DNA from: Eledone cirrhosa
Taxonomy: Eukaryota
Length of the DNA stretch: 64,000 nucleotides
NCBI GenBank assembly: GCA_964016885.1
Contig: OZ024752.1
Span: 2,666,001-2,730,000, forward strand
Direction of reading: 5' to 3'
The position numbers and the translations under genes are program-made. Shown here piece after piece: positions 9,288 through 9,825 of the stretch. How positions within the stretch are numbered: the first letter of the stretch is position 1; every line of letters begins with the position of its first letter. The notes under the pieces are model-generated. The model saw only the letters and a program-made list of their open reading frames with translations, did no database searches and was not told where the DNA came from.

Positions 9288-9343
<56 letters not shown>

Positions 9344-9375
9344 AGATCAAAAGATGGTTAAAGGAGTTCCATATA

Positions 9376-9442
9376 TTTTATTATGCGCATTTCAAAAACA
9401 AACATCATCAAGCAATAATATTTGTGTTTTCATCAGATAAAA
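9376..9442 (-). ncRNA. Type I hammerhead ribozyme (mirror copy)
   Basis: Reverse complement of 9587-9653. Confidence 0.78.
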
Positions 9443-9586
9443 CAGGAGAACATGATATGAAGGCTAAAAAACACTTGTTGATAGTGCAGTTTTAAATCAA
9501 CATATGAAAAGTGGTTTTTGTTGATTTGTTGATTTAAAACTGCACTATCAACAAGTGTTTTTTAGCCTTCATATCATGTTCTCCTG

Positions 9587-9653
9587 TTTTATCTGATGAA
9601 AACACAAATATTATTGCTTGATGATGTTTGTTTTTGAAATGCGCATAATAAAA
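9587..9653 (+). ncRNA. Type I hammerhead ribozyme, long stem II, palindromic stem III
   Basis: ttttat-CTGATGA-aaacacaaatattatt..tgatgatgtttgttttt-GAAA-tgcgca-TA-ataaaa; stem I ttttat/ataaaa; stem III palindrome ATGCGCAT; predicted cut AUA after 9647. Confidence 0.8.
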
Positions 9654-9779
9654 TATATGGAACTCCTTTAACCATCTTTTGATCTTATATTATGCATACT
9701 CCAGTTCCACAAACTGTAGAGTGCTTCTTATCCGATATCTGCATTGCTTTATTGTACTACAATAAAACTCACCTCCTAC

Positions 9780-9825
<46 letters not shown>

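Follow-up and report, generated by a model that had tools for sequence, protein, structure and literature searches.

An asymmetric fold-back in Eledone cirrhosa as a probable doubly primed stub of a Hydra-type Penelope-like element

The 446-base hairpin at positions 9336–9781 of the window (the 64,000-nt stretch of Eledone cirrhosa DNA analyzed here) consists of two head-to-head pieces from the end of a Penelope-like element (PLE), each carrying a hammerhead motif. Judged from its sequence and that of its relatives, it is almost certainly a stub of a Hydra-type PLE, derived from the pseudo-LTR end. For its origin we favor, with a probability of about 0.75, a process in which the insert would be made of two cDNAs primed by the RT-endonuclease on one RNA, at two fixed internal sites, at a cut (TA)n target. 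The PLE family is new, but the kind of element is already known; the inverted 5′-truncated copy, the one-sided tail, the hammerhead, and the (TA)n targeting are described in PMC8557442. The fold-back itself is an ordinary PLE insertion stub, and its value is that of a dataset. To date, the origin of inverted, one-tailed PLE insertions has been stated as unresolved (PMC8557442, PMC3846280), and the mobilization of non-LTR retrozymes as open (bioRxiv 10.64898/2026.07.22.740005). Thousands of young events with fixed reference points make both questions countable and supply exact RNA coordinates.

The features of the insert and its flanks are as follows, with "site 0" being our name for the proximal end site of the PLE pseudo-LTR:

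9304–9335, no strand: left target tract of (TA)n, with a blur of about 8 nt where it meets the arm
9336–9518, minus strand: tailless left arm, a copy of the PLE pseudo-LTR covering roughly the 185 nt upstream of site 0 and ending there
9376–9442, minus strand: putative type I hammerhead (sequence motif) of the left arm
9519–9526, plus strand: junction scar, an 8-nt repeat (TGTTGATT) of the right arm's first bases
9527–9693, plus strand: tailed right arm, portion common to the left arm (−167 to site 0)
9587–9653, plus strand: putative type I hammerhead (sequence motif) of the right arm, with a long stem II and a palindromic stem III
9694–9781, plus strand: tail of 87–88 nt, right arm only
9782–9823, no strand: right (TA)n target tract

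The inverted arms (9336–9502 and 9527–9693) are complementary at 167 of 167 bases; the earlier note on this DNA was right about the exact complementarity and one base short in giving the length as 166 bp. Its observations of a hammerhead motif in each arm, of outward polarity (left motif on the minus strand, right motif on the plus strand), of a tandem duplication at the junction (TGTTGATT, present at 9519 and repeated at 9527), and of (TA)n on both flanks are borne out. The insert as a whole is not symmetric. The right arm extends 88 bases beyond the inverted part, to 9781, the left arm has no tail, and 9503–9518 is not a spacer but additional left-arm sequence that matches the parent element upstream. 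The boundary of the left tract is blurred because the arm ends in TATATTAT, and no target-site duplication is readable inside the (TA)n. Exact matches in the genome number 11,623 for a 24-mer taken from the arm and 0 for the reversed control, so the fold-back is not a chance structure. A second, older fold-back, belonging to a diverged subfamily of the same PLE, lies at 49962–50384, with a tailless arm on the minus strand, a tailed arm on the plus strand, a hammerhead core at 50194, and (TA)n flanks. An imperfect inverted repeat at 8415–8537 has 49-nt arms (82% complementary) and a 25-nt loop.

A search of the same genome with the right arm gave 40 scored copies. All 30 copies fetched end within 4 bases of one site, adjoining (TA)n; five of them extend upstream, and four were fetched further. 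RT and endonuclease frames lie upstream in L031 and L032, and an RT fragment lies on the inverted arm of L023/L033. In L032, a 770-aa open frame with YRDD and YFGST motifs ends about 1.2 kb upstream of the same pseudo-LTR, and the same fold-back is present at kilobase scale, with arms of about 3.1 and 3.7 kb. In L031, two pseudo-LTRs enclose the ORF and a short inverted copy precedes them; L110 is a partial tandem (pseudo-LTR, ORF, pseudo-LTR) with a spacing of 3,672 bp. In the ORF-bearing tandem copies, L031 among them, the tail continues into the 5′ leader of the RT-endonuclease ORF. The family thus presents the features of an EN+ PLE, namely an ORF with RT plus a GIY-YIG-type endonuclease at its C terminus, a pseudo-LTR tandem, an inverted truncated copy, and a one-sided tail. 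Genome-wide, the 24-mer ending at the proximal site has at least 11,623 matches and tail ends followed by TA number at least 8,984, both exact-match counts and therefore lower bounds. Nearly all ends of the family adjoin (TA)n, the target typical of the Hydra clade.

Some of the longer loci have a more complex structure. The fold-back at L110:495–9137 (G000:C1:54092300–54101800) is 8.6 kb long and carries a 635-aa frame on its minus arm; each arm is a whole unit plus part of the next, and its template was therefore a read-through multimer. Four family arms are clustered in L034 (G000:C28:77027000–77036900), where they form a 2.5-kb palindrome with a (TA)n center, possibly an insertion into the flank of an earlier copy followed by inversion. 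At L032:6900–7500, the RT-endonuclease linker is asparagine-rich, recalling the N-rich inserts of rotifer PLEs (PMC3846280).

The assignment of the ORF to RT and GIY-YIG rests on motifs, because a Pfam scan of two parent ORFs gave no family match. The motifs present are RWT, DKT, YRDD, CxCx5C (CNCRIKNKC), CxxC (CNLC), and CxH (CRH). The Hydra clade is defined by RWK-like and DKT motifs, a CxCx5C linker, and CxxC plus CxH (PMC8557442), and the match therefore agrees with the Hydra clade diagnosis in section 11 of that paper. This is a placement by motifs; the six homologues found by a protein search with the parent ORF (35–40% identity) carry no clade label. The Neptune clade was an initial guess and was dropped, as the linker is CxCx5C rather than Cx2–5CxxC. 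Indeed, motif inspection found no Cx2–5CxxC in the parent ORF, and, by eye in the translation, the segment from YEC to YFG lacks any pair of cysteines and the GIY-YIG core has no CCHH.

Compared with the Hydra-clade C-terminal EN+ PLEs of PMC8557442, the family shares RW(K/T), DKT, the CxCx5C linker, CxxC, CxH, the C-terminal endonuclease, the pseudo-LTR hammerhead, and the (TA)n target; one clade member, Penelope-13_HM, likewise has a 5′-truncated inverted copy attached. Yet several differences are present. The unit measures about 3.7–3.9 kb here and generally less than 3 kb there; RWT replaces RWK; the tail is 87 nt long, whereas 30–40 nt is quoted for PLEs; the hammerhead is, by eye, unlike those in File S2 of PMC8557442; and this genome holds at least about 9,000 ends. 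With the canonical PLE unit (PMC8557442, Figure 2 legend; PMC3846280; PMC2377424), the copies share the head-to-head arrangement, the tail at one end, and the palindromes or microhomology at the junction. However, the modal product here is the pseudo-LTR alone, sharply bounded at −170 on its 5′ side and bearing a cap-like G, a form for which we found no description there.

The first 100 listed matches of the 24-mer on one contig (C1, 1–54.6 Mb) were merged into 68 loci, each of which was aligned to one real parent copy. Joined head-to-head pairs account for 47 of the 68 loci, and 21 have no joined partner visible; L117 was dropped from the pairs, as it consists of two separate insertions with TA runs between them. 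Among the 47 pairs, 44 combine a tailed with a tailless arm, 3 are tailless on both sides, and none is tailed on both (23, 13, and 10 expected if arms were independent; p ~2 × 10−9). Two pairs with both arms tailed occur among the first 100 tail ends listed (L169 and L170). The coupling of one tail to each pair is strong, with rare exceptions, and not absolute. Of the 47 pairs, 32 measure no more than 480 bp in all, and the whole set ranges from 132 bp to 8.6 kb (8,643 bp). In mixed pairs, the longer arm is the tailless one in 21 cases and the tailed one in 8, and the two are about equal (within 12 nt) in 15. Some tailed arms stop near site 0 and have nothing in common with their partners (L043, L056, L067, and two in L171). 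Partner arms are alike in sequence: in 51 pairs, drawn from the census and from the 40-copy genome search, 232 of 911 polymorphic site-pairs would be expected to be discordant, and only 7 are. Such likeness could also stem from gene conversion between inverted arms.

The parent family, its ORF, the two fixed outer ends, the single tail per pair, the variable junction, and the concordant arms can all be read directly from these copies. The earlier note had taken the element for a retro-copy rather than a MITE and had proposed that genomic copies be collected to see whether termini and junction are fixed or variable. The copies support this: the outer ends are fixed but unequal, the inner junction varies, the length spans 132 bp to 8.6 kb, and the long copies hold an RT-endonuclease ORF. 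They support neither an independent hammerhead RNA nor a two-ribozyme design: the small element represents the pseudo-LTR end of a PLE family that is autonomous and of the Hydra clade, and a fold-back with one tail is a published pattern of PLE insertion.

In the mechanism that we favor, whose enzymatic steps we infer throughout, the (TA)n target would be cut on both strands. One target end would prime at site 0, the other at a point 87 nt to its 3′ side, and both cDNAs would proceed toward the 5′ end of the RNA, the site-0 cDNA usually further. Their 3′ ends would then be joined by microhomology or by short re-copied pieces, leaving an outward fold-back with a scar. The template of most short copies would be a capped transcript whose start lies within the pseudo-LTR, at −170, and which is primed at the leader-proximal sites and copied to run-off at the cap. 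Two primings, rather than a copied hairpin, are proposed because either arm can be longer and some pairs are non-overlapping.

A related process is L1 twin priming, in which both target ends prime on one RNA, giving an inversion. In L1, however, the position of the second priming varies and overlap between the segments is unusual, whereas here neither site varies and arms overlap in most cases. Another comparable system is PAc, a PLE of the Poseidon clade from the green anole (Frangieh et al. 2024, PMC11167929). In vitro, it cuts and extends both strands, with RT starting at two internal sites that delimit the tail, at an AT-rich target and with hammerhead cleavage unneeded. PAc belongs to another clade, and its start sites lie in the ORF, whereas those here lie in the 5′ leader. 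The start site did not differ between strands in that in vitro work, where coupling was not tested, and we found no report there of one site being paired with each arm. The double-priming account would extend this finding (PMC11167929).

The 5′ ends of the arms are informative about the template. A hand count places the start of about 39 of the 94 arms at, or a few bases from, a single A located 170 nt upstream of site 0. Genome-wide, 683 junctions have both arms starting at −170 with 0–10 bases between them. The first 50 listed comprise 2 without filler, 22 with a single G or C, and 26 with a longer filler. The 22 single-base fillers (14 G, 8 C) are equally readable as genomic C and were excluded from the G count. 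In the 26 multi-base fillers, the base before the A is G at 32 of 52 arm ends, the genomic C at 8, T at 8, and A at 4; both arms have G in 8 of the 26 and C in 1. In full-length L1 insertions, a copied cap is marked by an additional G (PMC11702581), and the Drosophila Penelope promoter is internal (PMC2377424). By analogy, the start of a capped transcript probably lies within the pseudo-LTR, at −170. If bases were added without a template at run-off, the same base would be expected, and this would likewise imply a sense 5′ end there.

The window copy has no cap G. Its tailless left arm extends about 15 nt upstream of the putative transcription start, and its template therefore began further upstream. 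Re-copied pieces of the first 8–15 bases, like its TGTTGATT, recur at junctions (those of L003, L005, L006, L008, L027, and L030 resemble the window scar) and could result from RT slippage at the template end or from host microhomology repair.

Among the other explanations, the published reading of head-to-head junctions is self-priming (PMC3846280), with the tail ascribed to resolution (PMC8557442): an antisense RNA or first-strand cDNA would fold back at a palindrome and be copied into a hairpin, one arm of which the endonuclease would trim, so that the tail stays on the other. It accounts for the identical arms and the one tail per pair, and 5 of the 47 pairs do join at a palindromic CATATG-type overlap. 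Yet a copied arm cannot exceed its template, and here either arm can be the longer (21 versus 8 pairs); some pairs have no common sequence at all; and junctions in which each arm is preceded by a non-genomic G (8 of 26) point to two run-offs at a sense 5′ end. Antisense self-priming fits worse for these reasons, and we regard it as unlikely. Nor do junctions cluster at the hammerhead cut site (−46) as a fold point among the 47 pairs.

It is somewhat less likely again that two RNAs are used, one per subunit of a PLE dimer, each primed once and both drawn from one source locus or later homogenized. A dimer is predicted for the anole PLE protein (PMC11167929), the palindromic stem III could pair two RNAs (cofold −34.9 versus 2 × −11.4 kcal/mol), and the rare pairs with two tails or none would find a place. 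However, several subfamilies coexist, and their variants are almost never mixed within a pair (7 of 911). Moreover, in pairs with a long arm, the partner ends at −170 in 0 of 16, and it can be argued that both arms therefore read the same molecule, as in double priming.

With a similarly low probability, the short fold-backs might be a self-propagating, SINE-like sub-element with its own internal promoter, a reading compatible with double priming. The predominance of short pairs (32 of 47 at 480 bp or less), the many arms beginning at the putative start, and the internal promoter of Drosophila Penelope (PMC2377424) are in line with it. No short-only lineage was seen, however, as both major sequence subfamilies include long and short copies by eye, and junctions that vary from copy to copy argue for a fold-back formed anew with every landing.

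The shortness, inverted arms, TA target, and high copy number could suggest a MITE or a DNA transposon of the foldback type, bounded by terminal inverted repeats. This is hardly credible, as the termini differ by 87 nt, the center varies, lengths run from 132 to 8,643 bp, and the sequence comes from the end of an element that bears RT. Long-read chimeras can produce perfect hairpins, but an assembly or library artefact is equally remote given the unique flanks on both sides, the diverged arms of older copies, and the fold-back joints found at the same sites in Logan contigs of public runs, which show presence only and include a loose end in another study's run, although the best run may be the assembly's own sample.

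The hammerhead of the right arm comprises stem I (9587–9592/9648–9653), the core CTGATGA (9593–9599), GAAA (9636–9639), a predicted 12-bp stem II, and the palindrome ATGCGCAT (9639–9646) as stem III; cleavage is predicted after 9647, i.e., 46 nt upstream of site 0. The core is complete, stem I has 6 bp, the 12-bp stem II is conserved across subfamilies, and the palindromic stem III is 3 bp long. With its conserved core and three stems, the motif is by sequence a type I hammerhead. The monomer folds no better than shuffled sequences (z −0.9 to −1.3), and two copies are predicted to cofold as the dimer whose energy is given above, the expected state of PLE hammerheads (PMC4209133). An Rfam scan gave no hammerhead match at the fold-back among the best 150 of 278 rows, and its weak HH9 matches (37.7 bits, cut-off 52) fall only on the neighboring array described below. 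Because the two motifs of the fold-back lie on opposite strands, a single transcript cannot carry both in sense. It would hold one sense and one antisense motif and would pair with itself, and the outward hammerheads are therefore unlikely to be a functional pair. The absence of junction clustering at the cut site also accords with hammerheads that are, on these sequence grounds, passengers in the insertion.

PLE stubs are easily mis-annotated as MITEs or as miRNA hairpins, given weak matches to miRNA families below the cut-off. A sub-threshold Rfam match to MIR529 over the center of the fold-back was rejected as a hairpin artefact. A long hairpin at 548–666 of the window, with a TA/CA microsatellite core, also has sub-threshold miRNA-family matches.

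At 13899–31285, the window also contains a head-to-head array, 17 kb long, whose 468-bp units carry hammerheads; its junction repeat measures 15 nt and its one-sided tail 69 nt. Its family has two fixed 3′ end sites, the proximal one 69 nt before the distal; the left arm (13899–21318) ends at the distal site and the right arm (21337–31285) at the proximal one. By eye, the 468-bp unit has no sequence relation to the small element, and its tail differs from that of the Hydra-type PLE family. A 23-mer of the array family has 9,734 exact genome matches. The 24 stretches examined yielded 13 head-to-head pairs, the rest being single arms or having no usable match. One end lies at each site (within 5 bases) in 12 of the 13 pairs; in the thirteenth, an arm is broken off internally. 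Unlike the −170 peak of the PLE stubs, the 5′ junctions of this family are scattered around the unit, as, we infer, circular or multimeric templates would give. This sequence signature suggests that the array likely landed by the same two-end process as the PLE stubs, in agreement with the common integration mechanism proposed earlier.

The array fits the non-LTR retrozymes (PMC7229834; bioRxiv 10.64898/2026.07.22.740005), which are tandem units with one type I hammerhead each. The small element, in contrast, is not tandem and belongs to an ORF-bearing family, and it is thus not a tandem of 170–400-nt units without a coding parent. PLEs have been proposed as the mobilizers of retrozymes in those papers, which argue from co-occurrence and pseudo-LTR homology, whereas the two-end signature of the array is direct sequence evidence. 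Collectively, a joint reading seems slightly more probable than its opposite: PLEs would double-prime one sense capped RNA, with each tail-bounding site giving one cDNA; most landings here would be abortive copies of the mRNA leader (170/257 nt) with a copied cap at the end; and tandem hammerhead arrays of up to 17 kb would likewise be primed at two sites, on templates without a fixed 5′ end. If true, it would argue from in vivo data against the antisense self-priming model, and the junctions would be direct evidence of PLE machinery moving retrozymes. The literature covered, which left most subscription papers aside, contains no report that we found of a cap-derived G in PLEs, of one-site-per-arm counts, or of PLE-type tails on retrozyme arrays.

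Two tandem repeats lie between the fold-back and the array, at 10657–10881 (121 bp × 1.9) and 11189–11646 (93 bp × 5). They sit in sequence of strong negative GC skew, resembling a repeat-rich retroelement 3′ UTR.
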